52,818 nt of DNA. Source: Candidatus Daviesbacteria bacterium (GTDB taxonomy: Bacteria; Patescibacteriota; Microgenomatia; Daviesbacterales; UBA10151). A program made the position numbers and the translations under genes. Below are positions 4,380-48,258 of this stretch, one piece after another. Location of the stretch: assembly GCA_016183245.1 (NCBI GenBank), contig JACPEY010000033.1, positions 1-52,818 of the forward strand, written 5' to 3'. How positions within the stretch are numbered: position 1 is the first letter of the stretch; each line of letters begins with the position of its first letter. The notes below the pieces were generated by a model, which made no database searches, was not told the origin of the DNA, and saw only the letters and a program-made list of their open reading frames with translations.

Positions 4380-5254
4380 GCGGTATCGGCGATATATTTA
4401 ATTTAATTTTTTTCGGCCCGGTTATTAATCTGTTGGTGTTAATTTTCCAGGGATTGCAAGCGCTGCATATACCGGGAGCATTAGGTTTTGCCATATTGTT
4501 TTTGACAATTTTGATAAGGATTTTGGTCTGGCCGTTTATGGCTTCACAAATTAAAGCCACTAAAAAAATGGCGGATCTTAAGCCCCACCTGGATGCTTTG
4601 AAGAAAAAGCACAAAGGTGATAAGCAGGCTTTTGCTGCTGCACAGATGGCTCTTTATAAAGAGCACGGTGTAAATCCGGCCGGAGGCTGTTTGCCTGCCC
4701 TTATTCAAATTCCCGTTTTTATTGCTCTTTACCAGTCAATAATTCATATTTTGCCTGGAGGCAATATTAACCAGATAAATTCTTTGCTGTATTTTCCTCA
4801 GCTAAAGCTTCCATCCACCTTAGACCCGAATTTTTTCGGACTGAACTTAGGCATTAAACCATCGGAGTTTGGAAGCCAGGGATTCTTGTTGCTTTTAATT
4901 CCCCTTTTGACTGCAGGTTTAACCTTTGTGCAATCCAAGATGACTTTACCGAAACCGATTAAGCACTATCCGTCTGATTCCCCTAAAGAAGAGAAGGAGA
5001 AGGAGGGTTTGGAAGAAAGTATGGGACAGGTTCAGTCGCAGATGGTTTATCTGATGCCTATTATGATTGGTTATTTTGCTTTCTCTTTTCCGGTGGGGCT
5101 TGCAATTTATTGGAATACGTATACAATACTCGGGATAATCCAACAGCACCGGGTTTCCGGCTGGGGAGGATTGACTGACCTTACGGTCAGAATTAAAAAT
5201 TTAAAATTTAAAATTTCTAAAAAACAAAAAGACTATGGAAAATCAGTTGAGTGA
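4376..5254 (+). CDS. yidC: Membrane protein insertase YidC (short form)
   Basis: Conserved MADLKPHLDALKKKHKGDKQ...YKEHGVNPAGGCLPALIQIPVF. I prefer the GTG at 4376, which has GGAGG at 4366-4370 and a GTGA overlap with the yidD stop, over the TTG at 4343. Confidence 0.9.
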   Translation: MSGIGDIFNLIFFGPVINLLVLIFQGLQALHIPGALGFAILFLTILIRILVWPFMASQIKATKKMADLKPHLDALKKKHKGDKQAFAAAQMALYKEHGVNPAGGCLPALIQIPVFIALYQSIIHILPGGNINQINSLLYFPQLKLPSTLDPNFFGLNLGIKPSEFGSQGFLLLLIPLLTAGLTFVQSKMTLPKPIKHYPSDSPKEEKEKEGLEESMGQVQSQMVYLMPIMIGYFAFSFPVGLAIYWNTYTILGIIQQHRVSGWGGLTDLTVRIKNLKFKISKKQKDYGKSVE

Positions 5255-5724: not shown

Positions 5725-6919
5725 AGACACTCTCCTTTTTTTAACCCTACTCTTTTTGCCCACTCAACTAGGTAAACATTTTTGGCCTTCGTTCTCTTAT
5801 ATATATTCTTTAAAAATTGACTATCTGTCCCCTGTCATTTATTTTTGGGACATTCTGGCAGCAGGACTTCTGGCAGTTTGGTTTCTGCAAAAACCAAAGA
5901 TTAATAAACTTGCGCTTAACCTTTTGTTGGTGTTTTTGTTTACCCAGGCTTTGTCTTTAATTGGTGCCGGAAATATTGGAGCAGGGCTGGTAAGACTTGA
6001 GCAATATATACTGGCTGGTTTTTTTGGAGTATATCTTTCCTCCCTGGACTTTAAAAGTCTGGCGCAAAAAATTTTCCTGCCGCTTGCTTTAGGTATTTTA
6101 GGGCAAGCTCTTATAGCAATCCTGCAGTTTTTAAAGGGTTCAACTATTGGTTTTTGGTTTTTGGGCGAAAGGACTTTTAGTATTACAACACCCGGGATTG
6201 CCAAATTTGACTTTTATGGCAACCAGTTTTTAAGGCCTTATGCAACTTTTCCTCTCCCAAATGTTCTGGCAGGATATTTAGTAGTTATGGTTTATGGTTT
6301 ATGGTTTATGGTTTATAGGCAGAAACGTCTTTTAAAAGCAGTTTCAATATTAGCAGCAGTGATAATTTTTCTGACTATGTCAAGGGTGGCAATTTTGGCT
6401 GGAATGGTGGCGGTTCTGGTAATGCTGCGGCGTCAATCAATAAAGATTATAATTCTTATAACTATTATAACAATTATACTTTCCCCTATTCTTTTTATCC
6501 GATTTTCTGCTATTTTTAACTTTGACAGTTTAACACTAACAAGGCGGGAGGAGCTGATAGGAAGCGCATGGCAGATTTTTTTAAAAAAGCCTTTTTTTGG
6601 AGTGGGTTTAAATAACTTTATTCCGGTTTCAGCCGGAGATTTATTAACAGGTCCCAGCCGTTTTCTGCAGCCGGTCCATAATATTTTATTACTGGAACTG
6701 GCTGAGACAGGAATAATTGGCTTGATGGGATTATTGGGTCTCATCGGATACCCGGTATTAAAAAGATCAAAATTCAAAATTCAAAATTCAAAATTATTGT
6801 GGGTTATAATTCTTTTTCTGGGGATGTTTGATCACTATTTTTTAACTTTGCCTCAGGGTTACCGGCTGCTGTTTTTAATCTGGGGATTATCTTTTAGTTC
6901 TTCTGCAAAAACTGCTTAA
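5702..6919 (+). CDS. O-antigen ligase/polymerase-like (Wzy_C-type) polytopic membrane protein
   Basis: Many TM helices plus typical segments MSRVAILAGMVAVLV and PVHNILLLELAETGIIGL. The start is placed at the ATG at 5702, since upstream codons overlap jag. Confidence 0.7.
   Translation: MLKIKKAEDTLLFLTLLFLPTQLGKHFWPSFSYIYSLKIDYLSPVIYFWDILAAGLLAVWFLQKPKINKLALNLLLVFLFTQALSLIGAGNIGAGLVRLEQYILAGFFGVYLSSLDFKSLAQKIFLPLALGILGQALIAILQFLKGSTIGFWFLGERTFSITTPGIAKFDFYGNQFLRPYATFPLPNVLAGYLVVMVYGLWFMVYRQKRLLKAVSILAAVIIFLTMSRVAILAGMVAVLVMLRRQSIKIIILITIITIILSPILFIRFSAIFNFDSLTLTRREELIGSAWQIFLKKPFFGVGLNNFIPVSAGDLLTGPSRFLQPVHNILLLELAETGIIGLMGLLGLIGYPVLKRSKFKIQNSKLLWVIILFLGMFDHYFLTLPQGYRLLFLIWGLSFSSSAKTA
6767..6794. 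repeat. Heptanucleotide tandem repeat (TCAAAAT)x4 inside a CDS
   Basis: Four perfect 7-nt units, translated as KFKIQNSK near the C-terminal part of the O-antigen-ligase-like protein. Confidence 0.9.
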
Positions 6920-7433
6920 GTTTTTTAACAGCCAGTCCTCTCATGCTGATGGAATTTTTTTCTTTTAGGGTCATTTGGGCAAAGGTTTTATTGTAGCCTT
7001 CCGGCATAAAAATATCATTCCATCCAAAACTCTTATCTCCTTTTGGCGAGACGATTTCTCCTTTGATTTCTCCGCTGAAAAAATGGATATTATTTTTATC
7101 TTTTGCATAACCGATGATTGTTTTGGCCAAAGCCTTGCTATTATCCAATTTATTTGTCAGTTTATATAAACCAAAACTTCCAAGTTTTTGCAAAAACCAC
7201 TTTATTAAAGGCCCGGGTAAACCGTTTAAACAATCCAGATAAAGTGATGTATCCTCAACAATAAATTCTCCGCTATGATGCAAAAAAGCCTCTTTTAATT
7301 TTTCCGCTATAATTTTTTCAGCATCAGTTTCCTGCAGTTCGGGTAGTGCAATATTAAGCTGTTTTAACTCCGGCATTAAATCCTGCATTTCTTTAAACTT
7401 ATGTTTGCTGCCGGTAATAAAGTATAAAGCCAT
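6894..7433 (-). CDS. rdgB: Non-canonical purine NTP pyrophosphatase (HAM1/RdgB/ITPase family)
   Basis: FITGSKHKFKE..., EDTSLYLDCLNGLPGP, FGWNDIF, and SMRGLA near the C-terminus. Confidence 0.85.
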   Translation of the reverse strand: MALYFITGSKHKFKEMQDLMPELKQLNIALPELQETDAEKIIAEKLKEAFLHHSGEFIVEDTSLYLDCLNGLPGPLIKWFLQKLGSFGLYKLTNKLDNSKALAKTIIGYAKDKNNIHFFSGEIKGEIVSPKGDKSFGWNDIFMPEGYNKTFAQMTLKEKNSISMRGLAVKKLKQFLQKN

Positions 7434-9305: not shown

Positions 9306-10568
9306 ATGCAAAGTTTAATTAAAATTTCCCAGCAAACTATTTGGCAGGTTTTGGGGAAAGCGGTTACTTCCCTGTCTACCTTTATTATATTAGGGCTGGT
9401 TGCAAGAAATTACGGCCCCAACGGAACAGGTATTTTTACTCTGGCACTTACATACCTTGCGATATTTTACCTTCTGGCGGATTTTGGATTTAATGCCCAC
9501 GAACTAAAAAGAGTCAAGAGACTAGAGTCAAGAGATAAGGAATGGAATAAATTGTTGGGGACAAGGGTGGTTTGGTCTGGCATTTTGATTATTTTGGCAA
9601 TAGGGCTATTACCTTTCTGGCCTTTTGCTACAGCGCAGTTTAACACAGCAGTTTTTATAGGAAGTTTGGCAATTGCGGCTTCAGCAATATTTATAACCTG
9701 TAATTTAATTTTTCAAAGTAAATTAAGATATGACTTGTCTGTAATTGCTTCTAGTATTGGCACCTTAGTTGGGTTGGTAATTACAGTTTGGTTAATAAGT
9801 TCCCGCTTCCCTGTTTCCCAGATTATCCTGGGTCATTTAATAGGATGGGTATTCATAGCAGCCAGCGCGCTCATTTTATGCGGAAGATTGCTTCGTTCCT
9901 TCGCTCCTCGCAATGACAAACAAGAAAAGTTTCCCAGTTGCATTGGGAAACCAATTATTGATTTATCATATGCCGCTAACTTGTTTAAGCAGTCTTGGCC
10001 AATTGCTGCAACATTGTCTTTAAATGTTTTATATTTTCGGGCAGATTCTTTTTTAATAGCTTATTTTAAATCCGTCTCAGATGCAGGAATTTATAATGTA
10101 GCTTATTCTTTTTTTCAAACTGCTTTGGTTTTGCCGACCTTTATTATGAATGCTTATTATCCTTTAATGTTAAAATCTTTAGCTAAAGTAAAAGTGATGG
10201 GACTTAGTTTACTGGGGATATCCTTGCTCGGGACCGTCCTTACTTTAACTGCTGCGCCTTTAATCATTAAGATTTTGACTGGTGGTGGTTTTGCCGGTTC
10301 AACTTTGTCTTTGCAGATTTTATCTTTAGGTTTTCCGGCTTATTTTTTATCATCGCTTTTAATGTGGATTTTTGTGGCTAAAAATAAGTATAAAACCTTG
10401 TTTTTGCTTTACACGTCCGGGACGATTTTCAACATCTTATTAAATATTTTCTATATTCCAAAATATTCTTATATAGCTTCATCATGGATTACCGTGATTT
10501 CAGAATATTTTATTTTGATTTTGCAGATTATGGTATTATGGTTTGCAGAAAGCAGGTTCAAGAGATGA
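9306..10568 (+). CDS. MOP-superfamily polysaccharide/lipid-linked oligosaccharide flippase (Wzx/MurJ-like)
   Basis: 420 aa with ~12-14 TM helices and the typical N-terminus (QQTIWQVLGKAVTSLSTFIILGLVAR). Carries in-frame repeat fragments at 9511-9535 and 9884-9917. Confidence 0.7.
   Translation: MQSLIKISQQTIWQVLGKAVTSLSTFIILGLVARNYGPNGTGIFTLALTYLAIFYLLADFGFNAHELKRVKRLESRDKEWNKLLGTRVVWSGILIILAIGLLPFWPFATAQFNTAVFIGSLAIAASAIFITCNLIFQSKLRYDLSVIASSIGTLVGLVITVWLISSRFPVSQIILGHLIGWVFIAASALILCGRLLRSFAPRNDKQEKFPSCIGKPIIDLSYAANLFKQSWPIAATLSLNVLYFRADSFLIAYFKSVSDAGIYNVAYSFFQTALVLPTFIMNAYYPLMLKSLAKVKVMGLSLLGISLLGTVLTLTAAPLIIKILTGGGFAGSTLSLQILSLGFPAYFLSSLLMWIFVAKNKYKTLFLLYTSGTIFNILLNIFYIPKYSYIASSWITVISEYFILILQIMVLWFAESRFKR
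9884..9917. repeat. Half copy (right arm) of the GTCATTGCGAG-type palindromic repeat inside the flippase CDS
   Basis: AGATTGCTTCGTTCCTTCGCTCCTCGCAATGAC matches the right arm of the copy at 47445-47522. Translated as LLRSFAPRND. Confidence 0.7.
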
Positions 10569-16458: not shown

Positions 16459-18777
16459 TCAAGTGTTTATATTATTAGGCCACTTAGTAACCATAATAGT
16501 TTTGCCTTCATGGGGCAGTTTTTGCCATAATTCTTCAGTTATAAACGGCATGAATGGGTGCAAAAGCTCCAAAGATGTCCTGAATACGTATTCTAAAACC
16601 GGCTGGGCTTGGGCCCGCCTGTCTTTTGTTGATTCAATATATTTGTCTGCAAATTCATGCCAGATAAATTCATATAAAGCATCTGATCCGTCATGAAATC
16701 TATAAGAATCCAAGGCTTTGGTGACTGTTTTAATGGTTTGGGAAAGTTTTTCCAGAATTTGTTTGTCATCCTCATTTTTTCCTGTCATTCTGGCGAACGT
16801 AGTGAGTCCAGAATCTGTGTGATTCGTTGATTCTGGAGTCGTCGCGGAGTTTACCCCGTACTTTGATACGGGGTCCCTCCCCAGAATGACAGCAGTGGGA
16901 TTTAAATGTTTAGCATCTTCCGGGGCAAAGTCGATAATAAAACGGCCAATGTTCCACAATTTATTGGTAAAATTTCTCATGGCTTGCAGTTTAGGATGGG
17001 ACAACGCCTGATCGTGACCAAAAGCATTGCCATACATTAAAGCCATCCTTAAAGCATCTGCTCCGTAAAGGTTGGCAATTTCAATCGGGTCAACCACATT
17101 GCCTTTGCTTTTGCTCATCTTTTTACCAAGCGGGTCCAAGACTTTGCCATGCAGGAGAATATCTTTGAAGGGGATTTTGCCGGTGATGTAAATTCCCAGC
17201 ATGACCATCCGGGCTACCCAGAAGAGCAAAATATCATAGCCGGTTTCCATCACAGATGTCGGATAAAACTTATCAAAATCTTCCGGTTTGGTGGATTGCA
17301 GGGTAGCAAAGGGCCACTGGCCGGAAGAAAACCACGTATCAAATACATCCGGATCTTGTTCCAGTTGAGCAGAGCCACAATCTGGACATTTTTCAGGTTT
17401 TTCGCCTTCAGTCACAATCCAGATTGTATTATTTAGTTTTGAACTTTTAGTTGTAGTTTTGACTTTTGACTTTTGACTTTTGACCTCGCTGCATTTTATG
17501 CAGCGCCAGGCCGGAATCTGCATCCCCCAGACAATTTGCCGGGAAATATTCCAGTCTTTTAAATTCTCCAGCCAATTAAAGTAAGTAGTTTCCCAATTTT
17601 TAGGGACAATTTTTATGGTTCGACTTCGCTCACCATTAACCGCTTCAATGGCAGTTTTTGCTAGCCCGTCCATTTTTAGAAACCATTGTTCCAAAGGCAG
17701 CGGTTCAATTTCTGTACCGCATTTATAACAAACCCCCACCCTGTTTTTGTAATTTTCATCCATTTTTTCAATTAAGCCCTTCTCTTGCATCTCTACGGCA
17801 ATGGCTTTTCTGGCTTCCTTTACTCTCATGCCAGCAAACTTGCCGGCTTTTTCATTTAAACGGCCGTCAAAACCAATTACCTGGCGGATCTCCAGGTTAT
17901 GCCGCTGTCCTATTTCAAAATCTATTGGAGCATGGGCAGGGGTAACTTTAATGACTCCTGTTCCAAAGTTGGGGTCAACAGCTTTGTCTGCAATTACTTT
18001 AATTTTGGCCGGGCCTAACACTGTTTCAATACTTAAGGTTTCTCCTATATATTTTTGATAACGTTTATCATCAGGATGAACTGCCACGGCAGTATCACCG
18101 AATTTGGTTTCCAGTCTAACTGTAGCCAGTGTTAACGGCCCGTATTTAATGTAGTAAAGCGGGGTAGTCCGGTCCTCATATATAACTTCCAGATCAGAAA
18201 ATGAGGTGCCATGTCTGGTGCAGTAATTAACTAACCTCAGTCCCCGGTAAGCCAGGCCGTCATTAAATAATTTCTTGAAAGTTTTATAAACTACTTTGAC
18301 AATATCCGGGTCAAGGGTAAATTTTTCCCGCGACCAGTCAACAGAAAAGCCTAATTTACGAAGCTGTCCTTCCATGGTGCCTTTATTGGCCTGGACAAAA
18401 TCCCAAATCATTTTATATAAAGTTTCCCGGTCAAAGTCAAAACGGGACTTACCTGTCTTTTCCAAGTGTTTTTCAAATACTACTTGAGTTTCAAAGCCGG
18501 CATGGTCTGAACCCGGCAGCCATAAAGCAGCCTCACCTTTCATCCTATGATACCTGATTAAAATGTCCTCAACAGTATATAAGGCGTGGCCAAAATGCAA
18601 AGGGGCATTGGCATTTGGCGGGGGTAGGATAATGGTGTAAGGCTTGCCTTCAGGGTTTATCTCAGGTTGAAAATAGCCTGCTTTTTCCCAAATGTCATAC
18701 CACTTTGGTTCAACTTTAGTCTGGTCGTATACTTTCTCCATGGAGTAAGTATAGTGTTTTGGAAGGGGGAAGGTCAA
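16459..18777 (-). CDS. valS: Valyl-tRNA synthetase (short form, no long C-terminal coiled coil)
   Basis: PPPNANAPLHFGHAL (HIGH-type), KMSKSKGN, an editing-domain-length insert, and DKYIE in the anticodon-binding region. Carries two in-frame repeat insertions. Confidence 0.95.
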   Translation of the reverse strand: MTFPLPKHYTYSMEKVYDQTKVEPKWYDIWEKAGYFQPEINPEGKPYTIILPPPNANAPLHFGHALYTVEDILIRYHRMKGEAALWLPGSDHAGFETQVVFEKHLEKTGKSRFDFDRETLYKMIWDFVQANKGTMEGQLRKLGFSVDWSREKFTLDPDIVKVVYKTFKKLFNDGLAYRGLRLVNYCTRHGTSFSDLEVIYEDRTTPLYYIKYGPLTLATVRLETKFGDTAVAVHPDDKRYQKYIGETLSIETVLGPAKIKVIADKAVDPNFGTGVIKVTPAHAPIDFEIGQRHNLEIRQVIGFDGRLNEKAGKFAGMRVKEARKAIAVEMQEKGLIEKMDENYKNRVGVCYKCGTEIEPLPLEQWFLKMDGLAKTAIEAVNGERSRTIKIVPKNWETTYFNWLENLKDWNISRQIVWGMQIPAWRCIKCSEVKSQKSKVKTTTKSSKLNNTIWIVTEGEKPEKCPDCGSAQLEQDPDVFDTWFSSGQWPFATLQSTKPEDFDKFYPTSVMETGYDILLFWVARMVMLGIYITGKIPFKDILLHGKVLDPLGKKMSKSKGNVVDPIEIANLYGADALRMALMYGNAFGHDQALSHPKLQAMRNFTNKLWNIGRFIIDFAPEDAKHLNPTAVILGRDPVSKYGVNSATTPESTNHTDSGLTTFARMTGKNEDDKQILEKLSQTIKTVTKALDSYRFHDGSDALYEFIWHEFADKYIESTKDRRAQAQPVLEYVFRTSLELLHPFMPFITEELWQKLPHEGKTIMVTKWPNNINT
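16784..16890. repeat. MITE-like palindromic repeat inserted in frame in valS
   Basis: GTCATTCTGGCGAACGTAGTGAGTCCAGAATCTG...CCCCAGAATGAC. The left arm nearly matches 2149-2230. Translated as ILGRDPVSKYGVNSATTPESTNHTDSGLTTFARMT. Confidence 0.85.
17437..17484. repeat. Heptanucleotide tandem repeat block (GACTTTT x3 plus degenerate units) inside valS
   Basis: Perfect units at 17461-17481. Translated on the minus strand as KSQKSKVKTTTKSSKL. Confidence 0.85.
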
Positions 18778-18786
18778 TTGTAACTA

Positions 18787-19965
18787 TTACTGGACTAGAG
18801 ACAGGTTGGGGTTGGCCTGGAGGGTTAAGGGGTCTATAGGGTGGTAGTTATAAAAGGCAGTGGAGGCAATCATGGCAGCATTATCAGTGCAAAGCTTGGA
18901 AGCAGGTACATGTAATCTAATTTTGAATTTTGAACTTTGAATTTTGAATTTCAAATCAGAAACCAGTTTCTGATTTGACGCTACTCCTCCTGCAATCATA
19001 ATTTGATCAACTTTATACCTTTGGGCTGCTCTGACAGTTTTTTCAACAAGAACATCTACAATAGCAGCTTCTATAGAAGCTGCTAAGTTATTAGTGATTA
19101 GTTTGTAGTTTGTAGAATTTTTGTCTTTACTACCAACTACCAACTCTGAACTCTGAACTAAATTAGCAACTGCAGTTTTTAAGCCTGAAAAGGAAAAATC
19201 CCATCCATAGGTTGGTCGTCCTCTGGACGAAAAATCTTTCATCATTGGCCTGGGGAGATTAAAAGCATTAGGATTACCAGACTTGGCTAACTTAGCGAGA
19301 TTGGGGCCGCCCGGGTATGGAAGCCCAAGAAGTCTGGCGCATTTGTCAAAACACTCTCCTGCTGCATCATCCCGGGTTCCCCCTAGGTATTCATACTTGC
19401 CATGGTCTCCAAATAAAACTAAATCAGTATGTCCGCCGGAAACAAGCAGGCCAATGCAGGGGAATTTAGGTAAGTGACTAGTCGCTAGAGTCGAGAGACT
19501 AGACTTTTCTTTTTTATTCCTTGACTCTTGACTCTGGACTCTTGACTCTTCCCATATCCAGTTTGCATAAAAATGGCCGAGCAGGTGATTAACCGGTATA
19601 AGAGGTTTACCCCAAACTAAAGCCAGAGTTTTGGCTGTTTCTATTCCTACTAAAAGCGAGCCGATTAGTCCTGGTCCCTGCGTGACTGCAATAGCATCTA
19701 AACTTTGTTTACCCTGAGCGAGCGAAGCGAGTCGAAGGGCCTCTTCAATTACGGGAATAATGGATTTAATTTGTTCTCTGGCAGCTTGTTCCGGAATCAC
19801 GCCGCCGTATTTAGCTTGTAAATCAGCTGACGATGCCACAATATTGGATAAAATTATTACCCCTTTGTCTACCAAAGGCTTGTCGTAGGCGGATATTTCC
19901 ACTACAGCAGCTGCCGTTTCATCACAACTGGTTTCAATTCCTAGAATAACTTTTGGTCGTGTCAT
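18787..19965 (-). CDS. tsaD: tRNA N6-adenosine threonylcarbamoyltransferase
   Basis: ILGIETSCDETAAAVV, GPGLIGSLLVG, LLVSGGHT and IAGGVASN. At 392 aa it is lengthened by three repeat-derived inserts. Confidence 0.95.
   Translation of the reverse strand: MTRPKVILGIETSCDETAAAVVEISAYDKPLVDKGVIILSNIVASSADLQAKYGGVIPEQAAREQIKSIIPVIEEALRLASLAQGKQSLDAIAVTQGPGLIGSLLVGIETAKTLALVWGKPLIPVNHLLGHFYANWIWEESRVQSQESRNKKEKSSLSTLATSHLPKFPCIGLLVSGGHTDLVLFGDHGKYEYLGGTRDDAAGECFDKCARLLGLPYPGGPNLAKLAKSGNPNAFNLPRPMMKDFSSRGRPTYGWDFSFSGLKTAVANLVQSSELVVGSKDKNSTNYKLITNNLAASIEAAIVDVLVEKTVRAAQRYKVDQIMIAGGVASNQKLVSDLKFKIQSSKFKIRLHVPASKLCTDNAAMIASTAFYNYHPIDPLTLQANPNLSLVQ
18921..18948. repeat. Heptanucleotide tandem repeat (TTTTGAA)x4 inside tsaD
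   Basis: Four units, one with a single substitution. In the sense orientation this is the same TTCAAAA unit as 6767-6794. Translated as FKIQSSKFKI. Confidence 0.9.
19088..19160. repeat. Period-7 repeat block forming an imperfect inverted repeat inside tsaD
   Basis: TTAGTGATTAGTTTGTAGTTTGTAG ... CTACCAACTACCAACTCTGAACTCTGAACTAA. Translated as SSELVVGSKDKNSTNYKLITNN. Confidence 0.8.
19474..19550. repeat. Repeat block inside tsaD ending in (GACTCTT)x4
   Basis: GACTAGTCGCTAGAGTCGAGAGACTAGAC ... with heptamer units at 19523-19550. Translated as EESRVQSQESRNKKEKSSLSTLATSH. Confidence 0.85.
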
Positions 19966-24745: not shown

Positions 24746-25649
24746 CTTTTTTCCCTTCCATTTGAATCAGGATTTTGTCATTCTGAGGAGTCTTCGACGA
24801 AGAATCTCCCACTCGCCTCGCTGAGTCGGCGAAGCGGGCGTATGTGGGTCTCGCATGCGCGAGAGATCCTTCCCCGCCCTCACTGCCTCCGGCTGAGAGG
24901 CGGGTCAGGATGACAGAGGGAAGAAATTTTACAATTTTACCCTTCCAGCGGGTCCAAACCCCCGGCCAGGGGTAGTAAGCCCTAATCATTCTGTCTAAAA
25001 CTTCTGGAGATGGAGGATTTTCAATATCAAAAAATCCATCCTGTTTGGTAAAGTGTTTGGTATAGGTGGCTTTGGACTGATCCTGTTTGATGGGTTTAAT
25101 TTCCCTTTTCAGATATTTGTTGATAACTGAAACTAGTAATTCTCCGCCCATTTTATTTAAAGTTGTTAAAAGCGAGTCAGTATTTTCTTTTGCTGACAAA
25201 ACATATTCTTTCTGTGCCAGGAGATCTCCGGCATCCACCTCTTTAGTCATCTGGATCACAGTTACCCCGGATACTTTATCACCATTTAAGATAGCAAAGG
25301 GTGCAGGAGAAGGACCGCGGTATTTTGGGAGGATAGAGTGGTGGATATTTAAGGAAGCATATCCTGGGATACTTAAAAGCTCATCCGGTAAGATTAAACC
25401 GAAATCTTCCACAACTAAGAAATCTGGCTGCTGTTTTTTCACCCTTTCTATAACAGTTTGGTCTAATTTATCAGTTTCTACCAGAGGAATATTTAACTTC
25501 TCTGCCATGTTTTTAACAGGGTTAAAATCTAACTTTTTAGTAATAATTAACGACAGAGGATGGGTTGAATTGATAATCCGGGCGCCTATTGTTGAGTACT
25601 TTGTGTTACCAAAGAAAATAATGGATAGATTTTTCATAAAACGCTTCAA
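24687..25649 (-). CDS. fmt: Methionyl-tRNA formyltransferase
   Basis: IIFFGNT..., NIHHSILPKYRGPSPA, GVTVIQM..VDAGD. Contains a 138-nt in-frame repeat insertion in the C-terminal domain. Confidence 0.9.
   Translation of the reverse strand: MKRFMKNLSIIFFGNTKYSTIGARIINSTHPLSLIITKKLDFNPVKNMAEKLNIPLVETDKLDQTVIERVKKQQPDFLVVEDFGLILPDELLSIPGYASLNIHHSILPKYRGPSPAPFAILNGDKVSGVTVIQMTKEVDAGDLLAQKEYVLSAKENTDSLLTTLNKMGGELLVSVINKYLKREIKPIKQDQSKATYTKHFTKQDGFFDIENPPSPEVLDRMIRAYYPWPGVWTRWKGKIVKFLPSVILTRLSAGGSEGGEGSLAHARPTYARFADSARRVGDSSSKTPQNDKILIQMEGKKVMPIQDFLNGYPDFPLKEL
24777..24914. repeat. MITE-like palindromic repeat inserted in frame in fmt
   Basis: GTCATTCTGAGGAGTCTTCGACGAAGAATCTCCC...GGGTCAGGATGAC, 138 nt = 46 codons, GC-rich. 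Translated as ILTRLSAGGSEGGEGSLAHARPTYARFADSARRVGDSSSKTPQND. Confidence 0.85.
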
Positions 25650-34004: not shown

Positions 34005-34085
34005 GTCATTGCGAGGAGCGAGTCTTCGAGCGACGTGGCAATCTATTTTATATAGAAGATTGCTTTGCTAATCGCTCGCAATGAC
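34005..34085. repeat. MITE-like palindromic repeat (GTCATTGCGAG...CTCGCAATGAC) between the PfkB kinase gene and ahcY
   Basis: 11-nt perfect terminal inverted repeats plus an inner GCAATCT/AGATTGC pair. Confidence 0.85.
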
Positions 34086-46764: not shown

Positions 46765-47721
46765 ATGGAAAAAGCGATTTTAAAAACACTAATTTATGCA
46801 GATATTTTTGATTACCCCTTAAAGATAAATGAAATACATAAATGGTTGATTGGGAAAAAAGTAACACTCAGGCAGTTGGAGAAAGCGCTGGGGAAGTTAG
46901 TGGGTAGGTTACAGGTCTTCGACTCCGAGGTCGCTCAGACTCGAGGAGTTGCAGCCTGCAGAAGATTTTATTATTTGCCAAAAAGAAAAAAACTGATTAG
47001 TAAAAGGTTGGAAAAAGCCAGGCAGTCTGAGGTCTATTTAAAAAAGGCCAGAATGCTTGCCCAGGTTTTGAAAGTAATCCCTTGGATTAAATTGGTTGGG
47101 ATTTCAGGGGGCTTGGCTTTAAATAATGCCGGCAAATATGATGACATTGACCTTTTTATTGTTACTGCCAAAAACCGTTTGTGGGTTTCAAGACTGCTGG
47201 CTTTAGGACTACTGTCTTTAACAGGACAAAGAAGAAAGGCAGGAGAAAGCGGGAAAAAAGTTGCCGGGAAAATATGCGCTAATATTTTAGTGGAAGAGGA
47301 TAAACTGGAGCAGAAAAATAAAGATATATATACTGCCCATGAAGTTTTACAAATGAAAGTTTTGTGGCAGCGGAATGGGATTTATTCTAAATACTTATAT
47401 GATAATGAGTGGGTTTTTAAGTTTTTGCCAAACTGGGTGGATTCGTCATTGCGAGCCCCGAAGGGGCGTGGCAATCTAGTACCGCAGAAGATTGCTTCGT
47501 CGCATTCGCTCCTCGCAATGACGTGGATGGAGGGTCTTGCTAAATGGTTTCAGCTGAAAATAATGCAGAAACAAAAAGGGATGGAGCGGATAGAAGACGG
47601 GGCCCTTTATTTCCATCCTCAGGATTGCCGCCTGGGAGTTTTATCAGAATATAAAAAGAAATTATCTAGATTTTTTGACTCTTGGCTCTCGCGACTAGTC
47701 ACTGACTTAATCAGTCCTTGA
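46765..47721 (+). CDS. Hypothetical protein with a Pol-beta-type nucleotidyltransferase-like motif
   Basis: GISGGLALNNAGKYDDIDLFIVT resembles the G-S...D-x-D NTase signature. Carries in-frame repeat insertions at ~46911-46955 and 47445-47522. Confidence 0.5.
   Translation: MEKAILKTLIYADIFDYPLKINEIHKWLIGKKVTLRQLEKALGKLVGRLQVFDSEVAQTRGVAACRRFYYLPKRKKLISKRLEKARQSEVYLKKARMLAQVLKVIPWIKLVGISGGLALNNAGKYDDIDLFIVTAKNRLWVSRLLALGLLSLTGQRRKAGESGKKVAGKICANILVEEDKLEQKNKDIYTAHEVLQMKVLWQRNGIYSKYLYDNEWVFKFLPNWVDSSLRAPKGRGNLVPQKIASSHSLLAMTWMEGLAKWFQLKIMQKQKGMERIEDGALYFHPQDCRLGVLSEYKKKLSRFFDSWLSRLVTDLISP
47445..47522. repeat. MITE-like palindromic repeat inserted in frame (78 nt = 26 codons)
   Basis: GTCATTGCGAGCCCCGAAGGGGCGTGGCAATCT...AGATTGCTTCGTCGCATTCGCTCCTCGCAATGAC. 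Translated as SLRAPKGRGNLVPQKIASSHSLLAMT. Confidence 0.85.
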
Positions 47722-47808: not shown

Positions 47809-48135
47809 ATGCCAAAAGCTAGAAAAGAGTCAAGAATCAAGAATCAAGAATCAATAAAGCCCCTAATGGGTTATGTGTTGGTACAGCCTTCTGAAGCAGA
47901 AACTAGAACTGCCTCCGGTATAATTTTGCCGGAATCTGCCCAGGAAAAACCAGCCCAGGGAAAAGTGGTAGCTTGTGGTGATGAGATGGTTATGGAAAAT
48001 GGAAAGTCTGTGAAGTGTCCGGTTAAAGTGGGAGATAAAGTAGTTTACAAAAAATGGGGCGGGGATGAAATAAAAGTTGACGGCCGGGAGTTGAAATTAG
48101 TAAAGTTTGATGATTTGATGGCAATATTGGAGTGA
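47809..48135 (+). CDS. groES: Co-chaperonin GroES with a repeat-derived N-terminal extension
   Basis: IKPLMGYVLVQP...TASGIILPE...GKVVACG...VGDKVVYKKWGG. The conserved core is preceded by MPKARKESRIKNQES, encoded by the heptamer repeats. Confidence 0.9.
   Translation: MPKARKESRIKNQESIKPLMGYVLVQPSEAETRTASGIILPESAQEKPAQGKVVACGDEMVMENGKSVKCPVKVGDKVVYKKWGGDEIKVDGRELKLVKFDDLMAILE
47830..47854. repeat. Heptanucleotide tandem repeat (TCAAGAA)x3.5 inside the groES 5' end
   Basis: Perfect units at 47830-47850 plus a partial unit. Confidence 0.9.
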
Positions 48136-48144
48136 TTCTCCATT

Positions 48145-48258
48145 GTCATTCCGAGCGATTAGCCCGCTTCGACTTGTCGAAGACGAGGCGAGCGAGGAAT
48201 CTCCCACGAATGTGGGTCTGAAATAAATTCAGAGATTCTTCACTGCGTTCAGAATGAC
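48145..48258. repeat. MITE-like palindromic repeat in the groES-groEL spacer
   Basis: GTCATTCCGAGCGATTAGCC...TTCAGAATGAC. It shares the GAATCTCCCAC core, followed by a related GTGGGTCT motif, with the fmt copy. Confidence 0.85.

Follow-up and report, generated by a model that had tools for sequence, protein, structure and literature searches.

A REP-type palindromic repeat, probably tolerated as a disordered loop, in the valyl-tRNA synthetase of a Daviesbacteria bacterium

The valine--tRNA ligase gene (valS) of a Candidatus Daviesbacteria bacterium contains a 107-nt palindromic element through which the reading frame of the gene stays open. We put the probability at about 85% that this segment is selfish, non-autonomous DNA of the REP type, inserted in a linker of the enzyme and read through as a tolerated loop. 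The phenomenon, a repeat inside a gene, is of the type known from Rickettsia, and Daviesbacteria (CPR) is a new host lineage for it. In the following, the window is the whole stretch of DNA that was analysed, 52,818 nt in length.

The element lies at 16784-16890, on the minus strand, and is bounded by exact 10-nt inverted repeats, GTCATTCTGG at 16784-16793 and CCAGAATGAC at 16881-16890. A T precedes the left arm, which makes the tag TGTC, and an A follows the right arm. The repeats can be extended to 12 nt (CTGTCATTCTGG/CCAGAATGACAG, 16782-16892, 111 nt), and with its flanking bases the copy reads cTGTCATT...AATGACAg. Inside, TCCAGAATC (16807-16815), whose CCAGAAT core is that of the termini, pairs with GATTCTGGA (16829-16837), and the long arm holds a nested 8-bp hairpin, ACCCCGTA/TACGGGGT (16853-16874). 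The element has four ATTCTGG/CCAGAAT motifs and YGTC-tagged ends and is made up of two small hairpin units arranged as an inverted dimer, in which each unit follows the pattern YGTC-ATTCTGG-loop-CCAGAAT-C. It can therefore form a single long hairpin with side arms, or else two hairpins next to each other. The predicted fold of the transcript strand combines an outer and an inner stem with a side hairpin; its energy is -55 kcal/mol, compared with -29 +/- 3.5 kcal/mol for shuffled sequences (z = -7.4). An earlier, sequence-only reading had described a palindrome of about 107 nt here, and its coordinates and inverted termini are exact. It had also called the element much more GC-rich than the gene: at 52% G+C, against 42% in the rest of valS and 39% in the window, the element is indeed richer, but "much more" is an overstatement.

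The host gene occupies 16459-18777 on the minus strand; its longest open reading frame has 772 codons, while the database gene call is 760 aa. As first proposed, the 772-aa frame continues through the element. The number of added residues, given then as about 35, corresponds to 36 codons (the element plus base 16783, minus strand), which read VILGRDPVSKYGVNSATTPESTNHTDSGLTTFARMT. The junction peptides are ...HLNPTAVILGR... (AKHLNPTAVILGR) on one side and ...TTFARMTGK... on the other. Since the 107 nt between the termini are not a multiple of three, the insertion cannot have been a simple 3n addition, and flanking bases must have been gained or lost. The Pfam domains are tRNA-synt_1, residues 25-584, and Anticodon_1, residues 671-768, so that the insert, at residues 631-666, falls in the inter-domain linker; this agrees with the earlier placement between the KMSKS region and the anticodon-binding domain.

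In the AlphaFold2 model, residues 619-652 of the 760-aa protein have a pLDDT below 50 and no secondary structure, and they are flanked by helices at 582-604 and 657-678 with pLDDT 82-94. Whether a structure model would contain a surface loop had been raised as a question, and a disordered loop between confident helices is what is seen. According to this model, which is of moderate quality (mean pLDDT 72, alignment of 30 sequences), the insert most likely adds a floppy, disordered surface loop of 36 residues to ValRS. Low loop confidence in AlphaFold2 is partly to be expected of any lineage-specific insert.

The valS element has relatives in the window. GTCATTCTGG occurs there exactly four times, only at the ends of the valS element and of an 82-nt sibling copy at 2149-2230, which is intergenic and lies 16 nt past the stop codon of dnaA; these two are the only copies of the CTGG type in the window. 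The near match of the left arm to this sibling, noticed early on, is real: on the plus strand the initial 54 nt of the valS element align with 2149-2208 almost base for base. The two copies are a 25-nt arm and several substitutions apart, and the nested hairpin is missing from the intergenic one; in other family members the same slot of the long arm is filled by unrelated hairpins. Related elements are found at 24777-24914 (GTCATT...GATGAC, CTGAG type), within fmt, towards its 3' end; at 34005-34085 (GCGAG type), between pfkB and ahcY; at 47445-47522 on the plus strand (GCGAG type), in frame within an ORF whose function is unknown, where it reads SSLRAPKGRGNLVPQKIASSHSLLAMT; and at 48145-48258 (CCGAG/CTGAA type), between groES and the next chaperonin ORF. 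At pfkB/ahcY, filled and empty loci are too diverged for boundaries to be drawn, and the ATG in the element terminus is not the conserved ahcY start.

Further, the core motif is present on at least 120 metagenome contigs. From the metagenomes 37 complete copies were recovered, 29 of them with the four-motif inverted-dimer layout. All copies have the stem ATTCTGG/CCAGAAT, and sister subfamilies have ATTGC/GCAAT, ATTCT/AGAAT or ATTCC/GGAAT in its place. GTCATT is preceded by C in 16 copies and by T in 20 of the 37 (C or T in 36), and AATGAC is followed by A or G, again in 36 of 37. One arm is short, ATTCTGG-CTTGT-CCAGAAT, with a 7-bp stem and a 5-nt loop. In the other, the two stem halves stand 13-56 nt apart, and a hairpin is often nested in this stretch. 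The untagged end shows a one-base tail (C in CCAGAATC) and then a variable spacer; the CCA consensus is absent. Hairpins are kept across copies though the sequences differ, and 12 of 33 long arms have z < -2. None of the 37 copies is flanked by a direct repeat that could be a target-site duplication. Daviesbacteria DNA amounting to 200 kb yielded 12 superfamily copies, against 0-1 after shuffling, and a control set of 80 loci from 80 other species contained 2 in 1.4 Mb.

In twelve of the 37 copies the frame stays open through the element and for 40 codons or more on each side. The hosts of in-frame copies, confirmed by Pfam, include TsaD, the large chain of carbamoyl-phosphate synthase (CarB), ATP-dependent DNA ligase, Ham1, thymidylate kinase, a Mur-ligase-like protein and prepilin peptidase. 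The peptides of the 12 intragenic copies are of the forms VILG...ARMT (valS), RHSG...QND/ARMT and SFW...PRMT, and three frames are used.

In ValRS itself the segment is lineage-specific, and occupancy of the linker is recurrent and polymorphic among relatives. The comparison covers the 111 orthologues whose linker could be delimited. Linker length ranges from 36 to 77 aa and is 36-38 aa in many Daviesbacteria orthologues; the 77 aa found here are the longest. In T. thermophilus ValRS (1GAX) there are about 15 residues where the Daviesbacteria protein has 54. Different members of the family occupy the same linker in roughly 25-30 of the 111 orthologues, at several positions. At the DNA level these occupants were confirmed as GCGAG, CCGAG, CTGAG and CTGG types and a half element, at differing codon positions, and those of different subfamilies encode unrelated peptides. 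Alignment with related ValRS proteins confirms the lineage specificity: many orthologues have no insert at the site, and the nearest ones (75-78% identity) carry another element or none. When a genome collection was scanned for relatives of this valS, the closest among the matches listed were Levybacteria at 60-62%, and no Daviesbacteria were among them.

Turnover has also been recent, as two near-identical genomes show, L209 and L210, a filled/empty pair that concerns the valS of relatives and not the window's own copy. Here valS and its flanks are 99-100% identical save for a patch of about 220 nt, in which one genome has a 66-nt element and the other has none. Recurrent occupancy could stem from allele exchange by recombination and not from repeated transposition. 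The orientation of the window element was compared with that of the same-type element in the valS of another relative (L086), and the scores, 24.6 and 28.8, have no power to separate out independent insertion, since the sequence of the element and its reverse complement are almost the same.

In the reading that we favour, the linker between the Rossmann-fold/KMSKS core and the helical anticodon-binding domain would have been entered by transposition or on a short recombination patch. An element that keeps the frame open, in a linker that tolerates extra residues, would then persist, and it would be transcribed and translated together with valS as a hydrophilic, disordered surface loop of 36 residues. 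The preserved frame suggests that the insert is translated in vivo. It is probably neutral, and has no demonstrated role in the enzyme.

It is improbable, in our view, that the element has been domesticated, with a hairpin that delays the ribosome between the two ValRS domains or determines how stable the mRNA is, or with a loop that binds tRNA or a partner. Roughly 25-30 of 111 orthologues do have an insert in this linker, but the inserts are of different subfamilies, at different positions and with unrelated peptides, and many orthologues have none. The RNA fold is very stable (z = -7.4) and hairpins are kept in the arms despite sequence change (z < -2 in 12 of 33 long arms), whereas L209 and L210 differ in presence and absence, and the loop is predicted to be disordered. 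Varied occupants, absences, polymorphism and disorder all fit tolerance of the insert better than a requirement for it.

The sequence-only reading had considered that the synthetase either tolerates the element or requires its removal. Tolerance is supported by the open frames and the disordered loop. Features of an intron, ribozyme or intein are lacking, and removal before ValRS functions, whether by processing of the RNA, by translational bypass or by protein splicing, is very improbable. Removal would not need an open frame, yet the frame is open in the valS copy, in other insert-bearing ValRS orthologues and in 12 of the 37 family copies. Only the strong hairpin with its exact inverted termini, which could in principle join both junctions, speaks for it. 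Rfam gives no gathering-score match in the window and, around the element, only noise at E <= 10; further, 36 residues are far below the size of an intein, and intein junction residues are absent. Intein, self-splicing intron and translational bypass were rejected on these grounds and on the open frame. In Rickettsia, proteins with RPE-1 insertions are expressed in vivo according to Di Nocera et al. (BMC Genomics 14:522), which also counts against removal.

A repeat-induced chimera that put the intergenic copy into valS during assembly is just as hard to sustain. Dispersed repeats can mislead short-read assemblers and the protein is on a single contig, but the valS codons are contiguous in the same frame on both flanks, the two copies differ by the 25-nt arm and the substitutions, and independent assemblies from NCBI, ENA, JGI and Logan show inserts of this kind in this linker; the chimera was rejected for these reasons. 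That the segment is ordinary fast-evolving linker, similar to the intergenic copy by coincidence or by copying from gene to intergenic region, is hardly credible: linker length is variable among orthologues (36-77 aa), but protein-level drift would not be expected to give exact palindromic termini, 12 pairs were observed against 0-1 in shuffles, and the recurrence of the four-motif architecture, with those termini, on many contigs, in intergenic regions as well as in unrelated genes, contradicts an ancestral linker sequence.

We know of no mobilising enzyme for REPs of the CGTC type, the repeats, published as "orphan", that the element resembles. There was no transposase among 10 ORFs scanned from two copy-dense contigs (L173 and L136), and no RAYT (IS200/IS605-like Y1 transposase) gene at the loci examined, the window being about 5% of a CPR-sized genome. 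As no transposase lies beside the dense copies, it is from their distribution that we infer the family to be mobile. The nearest model would be that of RAYTs and GTAG REPs, in which single-stranded hairpins are the substrate of an HUH/Y1 transposase. It is possible, though rather doubtful, that the valS linker and at least three loops of TsaD are true hot spots, in which REP dimers are repeatedly targeted or swapped on recombination patches of about 200 nt. Breaks induced by cruciforms or hairpins, or older remnants such as an AKHLD-type linker extension, might then direct REP dimers to these sites.

If the hot spots are true, selfish DNA would systematically diversify the loops of essential CPR proteins, in length as well as in sequence. 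In any case the CPR are another lineage with small genomes and host-dependent lifestyles in which carriers include essential translation-related enzymes, ValRS and TsaD. For some of the lineage-specific insertions by which CPR proteins are lengthened, REP-type elements provide a concrete source. For annotation and structure prediction, a low-confidence loop bounded by VI...MT/ND may be a repeat and not a functional motif. Near-identical genomes with a single 220-nt patch of difference provide a natural experiment on the spread of the element and on the tolerance of a class I synthetase linker. Nothing is overturned by this, as the kind of element is known and aminoacyl-tRNA synthetase hosts had been listed before.

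A full-text literature search with the terminal sequences returned only primers and unrelated constructs, and nothing relevant was found on MITEs or REPs in CPR or Patescibacteria. The element had been called MITE-like, which is correct in so far as it is a dispersed palindromic repeat. With IS-derived MITEs (Correia/NEMIS, RUP, ERIC) it shares short length, terminal inverted repeats, dispersal and RNA hairpins, and such MITEs are occasionally intragenic with in-frame fusions. However, it has no target-site duplication, no parent IS was recognised (none of the 10 ORFs scanned is a transposase), and it is a dimer of hairpin units, not a deleted IS. The absence of target-site duplications in 37 copies, together with termini and encoded peptide ends equal to those of published CGTC-1 repeats, make a REP-type CGTC inverted dimer a better description than an IS-derived MITE.

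REPINs, the GTAG-tagged REP doublets mobilised by RAYT transposases, are overwhelmingly extragenic. The inverted doublet, the long hairpin, the non-autonomous nature, the lack of target duplication and the conserved unpaired tag at the hairpin foot are common to both, but the tag here is YGTC and not GTAG, and no RAYT/IS200-like gene lies beside the copies examined.

In Rickettsia, nearly half of the copies of the palindromic elements (RPE) are intragenic (Ogata 2000 Science 290:347, Ogata 2002 Genome Res 12:808, summarised in PMC10969869 and PMC3733652). As there, the Daviesbacteria repeat is palindromic, sits in frame in many unrelated housekeeping genes of a host-dependent bacterium with a small genome, and uses sites compatible with the fold. 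The genus and phylum are different, and RPE-1 is about 150 bp long with a conserved peptide, whereas in Daviesbacteria both the arms and the encoded peptide differ widely from copy to copy, and three frames are used. In sequence the link is only indirect, through RPE-4 and RPE-6, which Di Nocera et al. assigned to CGTC families.

The CGTC-tagged REP superfamily, which includes dRS3 of Neisseria and RPE-4/RPE-6 of Rickettsia (Di Nocera, De Gregorio & Rocco 2013, BMC Genomics 14:522), is built of units with an unpaired head tetranucleotide CGTC (variants TGTC, CCTC), a stem of 8-9 bp with complementary A and T at positions 1-2, a loop of 4-5 nt and a short unpaired tail, CCA in "most" but not all; the units are mainly inverted dimers that can fold into a larger structure, and most of these repeats reside in alpha-Proteobacteria (BMC Genomics 14:522). 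The Daviesbacteria element shares with it, and especially with the CGTC-1 dimers, the CGTC/TGTC tag, the A-T start of the stem, the inverted dimers foldable into a larger hairpin, the lack of a target duplication and of a dedicated transposase nearby, and the location of copies just downstream of genes and in ORFs. Published intragenic CGTC-1 copies encode VIPAKAGI..., ...IPASAGMT, RHSGGGRNL and SFLRKQES...RGND (BMC Genomics 14:522, Additional file 3); the GTCATT/AATGAC ends, the frames and the peptides V-I/T-P-A..., ...A-G-M-T, RHSG... and SF...RGND are common to both. In contrast to the four published families, with 8-9 bp, the Daviesbacteria stem core ATTCTGG has 7 bp, and with its 5-nt loop the short arm is an approximate fit; the "loop" of the other arm is usually greatly expanded, to 13-56 nt, and frequently has a hairpin nested in it, a single C makes up the tail where most elements have CCA, and the host is a CPR bacterium in which about one third of the complete copies, a high fraction, are in genes. 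Such an insertion in an essential aminoacyl-tRNA synthetase had been called unusual, and it is, but it is not unprecedented: REPs of the CGTC superfamily have already been listed in the genes of isoleucyl- (IleRS) and glycyl-tRNA synthetase (GlyRS-beta) and in many Rickettsia genes (BMC Genomics 14:522).

The 107-nt segment at 16784-16890 has perfect inverted repeats of 10 nt at its ends, GTCATTCTGG and CCAGAATGAC, which grow to 12 nt when the flanking CT/AG is included. In the whole window the terminal decamer is present at four places only: both ends of this element and both ends of an 82-nt copy at 2149-2230. On the plus strand the first 54 nt of the two match nearly base for base, in line with the similarity of the left arm noticed in the sequence-only reading; beyond that they differ by a 25-nt block, where the valS copy has an extra 8-bp hairpin. 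The transcript strand of the valS element folds with -55 kcal/mol (z = -7.4 against dinucleotide shuffles). Its host ORF (16459..18777, minus strand) is, by Pfam and the best database matches, the valine--tRNA ligase of a Candidatus Daviesbacteria (CPR/Microgenomates). The frame stays open across the element, as had been claimed, and the encoded peptide is VILGRDPVSKYGVNSATTPESTNHTDSGLTTFARMT. The element was also described as much more GC-rich than its gene; it is indeed richer, but the difference is modest (52% against 42% in the rest of valS). Overall the earlier interpretation holds and the finding is genuine: the DNA belongs to a dispersed, polymorphic repeat family and lies in an open frame, in a linker of 36-77 residues.

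The copy at 2149-2230 is intergenic and starts 16 nt past the dnaA stop codon. About 220 nt from it is a gene (1472-1927) with an Endonuc_Holl domain (PF10107, related to archaeal Holliday-junction resolvase); that a junction-resolving nuclease adjoins a cruciform-forming repeat may be a coincidence.

Scanning metagenomes with the pattern GTCATTCTGG-N(0-30)-TCCAGAATC matched at least 120 contigs, most of those listed having 32-46% G+C. From the matches listed we extracted 37 complete copies of 34-122 nt, 29 of which are built as GTCATTCTGG-[arm]-CCAGAATC-[spacer]-GATTCTGG-[arm]-CCAGAATGAC. This is one 7-nt motif used four times in alternating orientation, so that a small hairpin unit forms an inverted dimer. 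Of the two arms, one is usually minimal (CTTGT) and the other expanded. Among the arms of at least 16 nt, 12 of 33 hold a nested hairpin whose stability far exceeds that of shuffles and whose sequence is unrelated between copies. Perfect examples are GTCCTCCGAATCGGAGGAC, CCGCCAGCTGGCGG and GTCCCGCCAGGGCGGGAC, among others; copies with such arms lie at 1870-1961, 1586-1677 and 7214-7295 of the contigs L090, L146 and L173, and the valS copy has ACCCCGTA/TACGGGGT at 16853-16874. These hairpins may have arisen in place or may belong to a further family of small palindromes that inserted into the arms. In all 37 copies from the matches listed no target-site duplication was found, while in 36 the base preceding GTCATT is a pyrimidine and in 36 the base following AATGAC is a purine. 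Sister subfamilies in the window and its relatives keep GTCATT/AATGAC, while the bases that follow have changed in step in each of the four motif copies (ATTGC, ATTCT, ATTCC).

To place the insert in the protein, we aligned 30 ValRS orthologues and then delimited the linker, from the conserved NKLWNIGRFI helix to the YRFHD helix, in 111 of the 120 best database matches. Many sequences have only 36-38 residues (consensus IEFKPEDxxTEISxHxDDK), a second group has 44-46 (...DAKHLDPxxx...), and a long tail runs from 50 to 77, the window's protein being the longest of the 111, which agrees with a lineage-specific segment. In the Thermus thermophilus enzyme (1GAX) residues 4-591 and 607-706 align to 2-604 and 659-755 of the query, so the characterised enzyme has about 15 residues where the window's has 54. 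In the AlphaFold2 model (mean pLDDT 72) the insert, residues 619-652, has pLDDT below 50 and no secondary structure, between confident helices at 582-604 and 657-678 (pLDDT 82-94). The added residues are thus predicted to form a disordered loop.

A second lineage-specific insert of valS, at 17440-17480 (minus strand), lies between the zinc-knuckle cysteines. It consists of four tandem copies of AGTCAAA plus related sequence, reads EVKSQKSKVKTTTKSSKLNN in frame and has pLDDT below 50; similar K/S-rich inserts are found at the same place in the orthologues P0007 and P0118.

DNA was recovered for eight orthologous loci, all with a conserved tsaD-valS-rplY context. The linker contains a 105-nt GTTATTGCGAG...CTCGCAATGAC element in L081, a GTCATTCCGAG...CTCGCAATGAC element in L083, GTCATTCTGA(A/G)...CTCAGGATGAC elements in L084 and L085, a 57-nt element of the window's own GTCATTCTGG...CCAGAATGAC type in L086, and, in L088, no more than the right half of an element; the linker DNA of L082 and L087 has none. 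Where inserts are present, their position after AKHL(D/N) varies by zero to five codons. Other orthologues have an insert some ten residues further upstream, following IEF(D/N)P, or one entered in another frame, such as SSWLVQDPDSGVAVAPQND in P0083, which, judged from the peptide, fits a CTGG-type copy like that of the window. Differing elements at differing positions indicate that different members of a single repeat superfamily have repeatedly come to occupy the linker. At the peptide level, another palindromic family (HPELVSGS...MLKQVQHD) is seen in the same linker in P0063, P0066 and P0084 and in a TsaD loop of L081.

Two Daviesbacteria assemblies, L209 and L210, match at 99-100% in every 100-nt interval of valS and the sequence on either side of it; the exception is a patch of about 220 nt (L209 ~4765-4985) that covers the linker and the first anticodon-domain helix. 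In this patch a 66-nt element is present in one assembly and absent from the other, and the surrounding ~150 nt are only ~70% identical, a pattern resembling a short recombination tract. Occupancy has therefore changed in recent time, in some cases at least via short-patch recombination between alleles.

Insertion in frame is not confined to valS. Among the 37 copies from the matches listed, 12 have a frame that stays open through them and for 40 codons or more on either side, and they are entered in all three frames (VIL five times, xHSG six times, SFW once). Seven further hosts were identified by Pfam: TsaD, carbamoyl-phosphate synthase large chain, ATP-dependent DNA ligase, Ham1, thymidylate kinase, a Mur-ligase-like protein and prepilin peptidase. 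Daviesbacteria DNA totalling 200 kb contains 12 complete superfamily copies, where shuffles give 0-1. Long ORFs hold eight of them in frame: two are in tsaD, one is in an unknown ORF, and the other five are the valS inserts by which the loci had been chosen. The valS surroundings of 80 other species listed, 1.4 Mb in all, have only two such pairs. TsaD orthologues have element-like in-frame inserts in three different loops (L081, L083, L085, L086, L088 and window 18787-19965; alignment A3), e.g. PSSLRATAKQSSQEINPTQIASSPSAPRND, SPVILSAAKNLSRMRDSNKLRDPSLIVQDD and NVIPSKARNLPRIWDPNKLGDPSLIVQDD, so the essential gene neighbouring valS shows the same phenomenon.

The window has other members. An 81-nt GTCATTGCGAG...CTCGCAATGAC element (34005-34085) lies exactly between pfkB and ahcY, genes that overlap or abut in the relatives L082 and L086; an ATG in its terminus lengthens the longest ahcY ORF, while by alignment the conserved start is the next ATG downstream. 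A related 138-nt element (24777-24914) is located towards the 3' end of fmt (methionyl-tRNA formyltransferase) and seems to replace or extend the C-terminus of the protein: with 320 codons the ORF is longer than in relatives (233-238), and Formyl_trans_C is matched only up to profile position 56 of 100. A complete GCGAG-type copy (47445-47522) is in frame in an ORF without Pfam match (46765..47721), and a right half (9885-9917) is inside a Polysacc_synt flippase gene (9306..10568).

Heptamer runs related to that in valS (GAGTCAA/GAATCAA) number nine in the window against 0.15 expected, and include 19518-19548 (tsaD), 9511-9534 (the flippase), 47827-47850 (5' end of groES) and 47672-47688. Several are within coding regions, read for example as ESRVQSQESR in TsaD and as KESRIKNQESIK at the GroES N-terminus. 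The runs form a second family of repeats that are read as part of essential genes. A (TCAAAAT)n-type run in the 3' part of tsaD (18918-18947), encoding KFKIQSSKFKIR, recurs in inverted orientation at 6767-6796 (97% complementary).

The open frame suggests that valS is translated through the element. Since close relatives have differing, unrelated inserts or empty sites, the loop is probably tolerated rather than needed. The elements may spread by a transposition that recognises the hairpin, as RAYT does on GTAG REPs, and also by homologous recombination between alleles, as in the L209/L210 patch; no mobilising enzyme was identified among the 10 ORFs scanned from copy-dense contigs. Targeting may bring elements back to the valS linker, but selection explains the recurrence most simply: insertions elsewhere in an essential synthetase would be lethal, which leaves for observation just the ones that hit a permissive loop in an open frame.

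The closest known repeats are those of the CGTC-tagged REP superfamily defined by Di Nocera et al. (2013, PMC3733652). Their tag is CGTC, often TGTC or CCTC, their stems begin A-T, the units are mostly inverted dimers, and a dedicated transposase is not known; Neisseria dRS3 belongs here, as do RPE-4 and RPE-6 of Rickettsia. Intragenic copies are reported in many species, with tRNA synthetase genes among the hosts, e.g. Erythrobacter litoralis isoleucyl-tRNA synthetase (VTPAEAGVSPGHEQIPASAGMT) and glycyl-tRNA synthetase beta. Their peptides (VIPAKAGI, ...IPASAGMT, RHSGGGRNL, SFLRKQES...DSRFRGND; Additional file 3) are what the GTCATT.../...AATGAC termini encode when read in the frames used by the copies described above. 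For Rickettsia, a 2024 MITE review (PMC10969869) gives 44 copies, nearly half in frame in ORFs. A repeat in an essential synthetase, described earlier as unusual, is genuine and of a known kind, with published precedents that include class I synthetases. What is new is the lineage of the hosts, the striking way in which a single linker is used over and over across a candidate phylum, and the patch in which near-identical genomes differ by the presence or absence of an element. In the searched literature we found no description of such elements in CPR bacteria, which is absence of evidence only. As no target-site duplication was found in the copies listed, "REP-type" describes the element better than "MITE-like". 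The valS element works like an RPE, and its family differs from the described REPs in its 7-bp stem core, its one-base tail instead of CCA, its greatly expanded, hairpin-bearing arms and its CPR hosts. With the features they share, the window's element is best classed as a CGTC-1-like REP heterodimer family not described before, in a host lineage that is likewise new.
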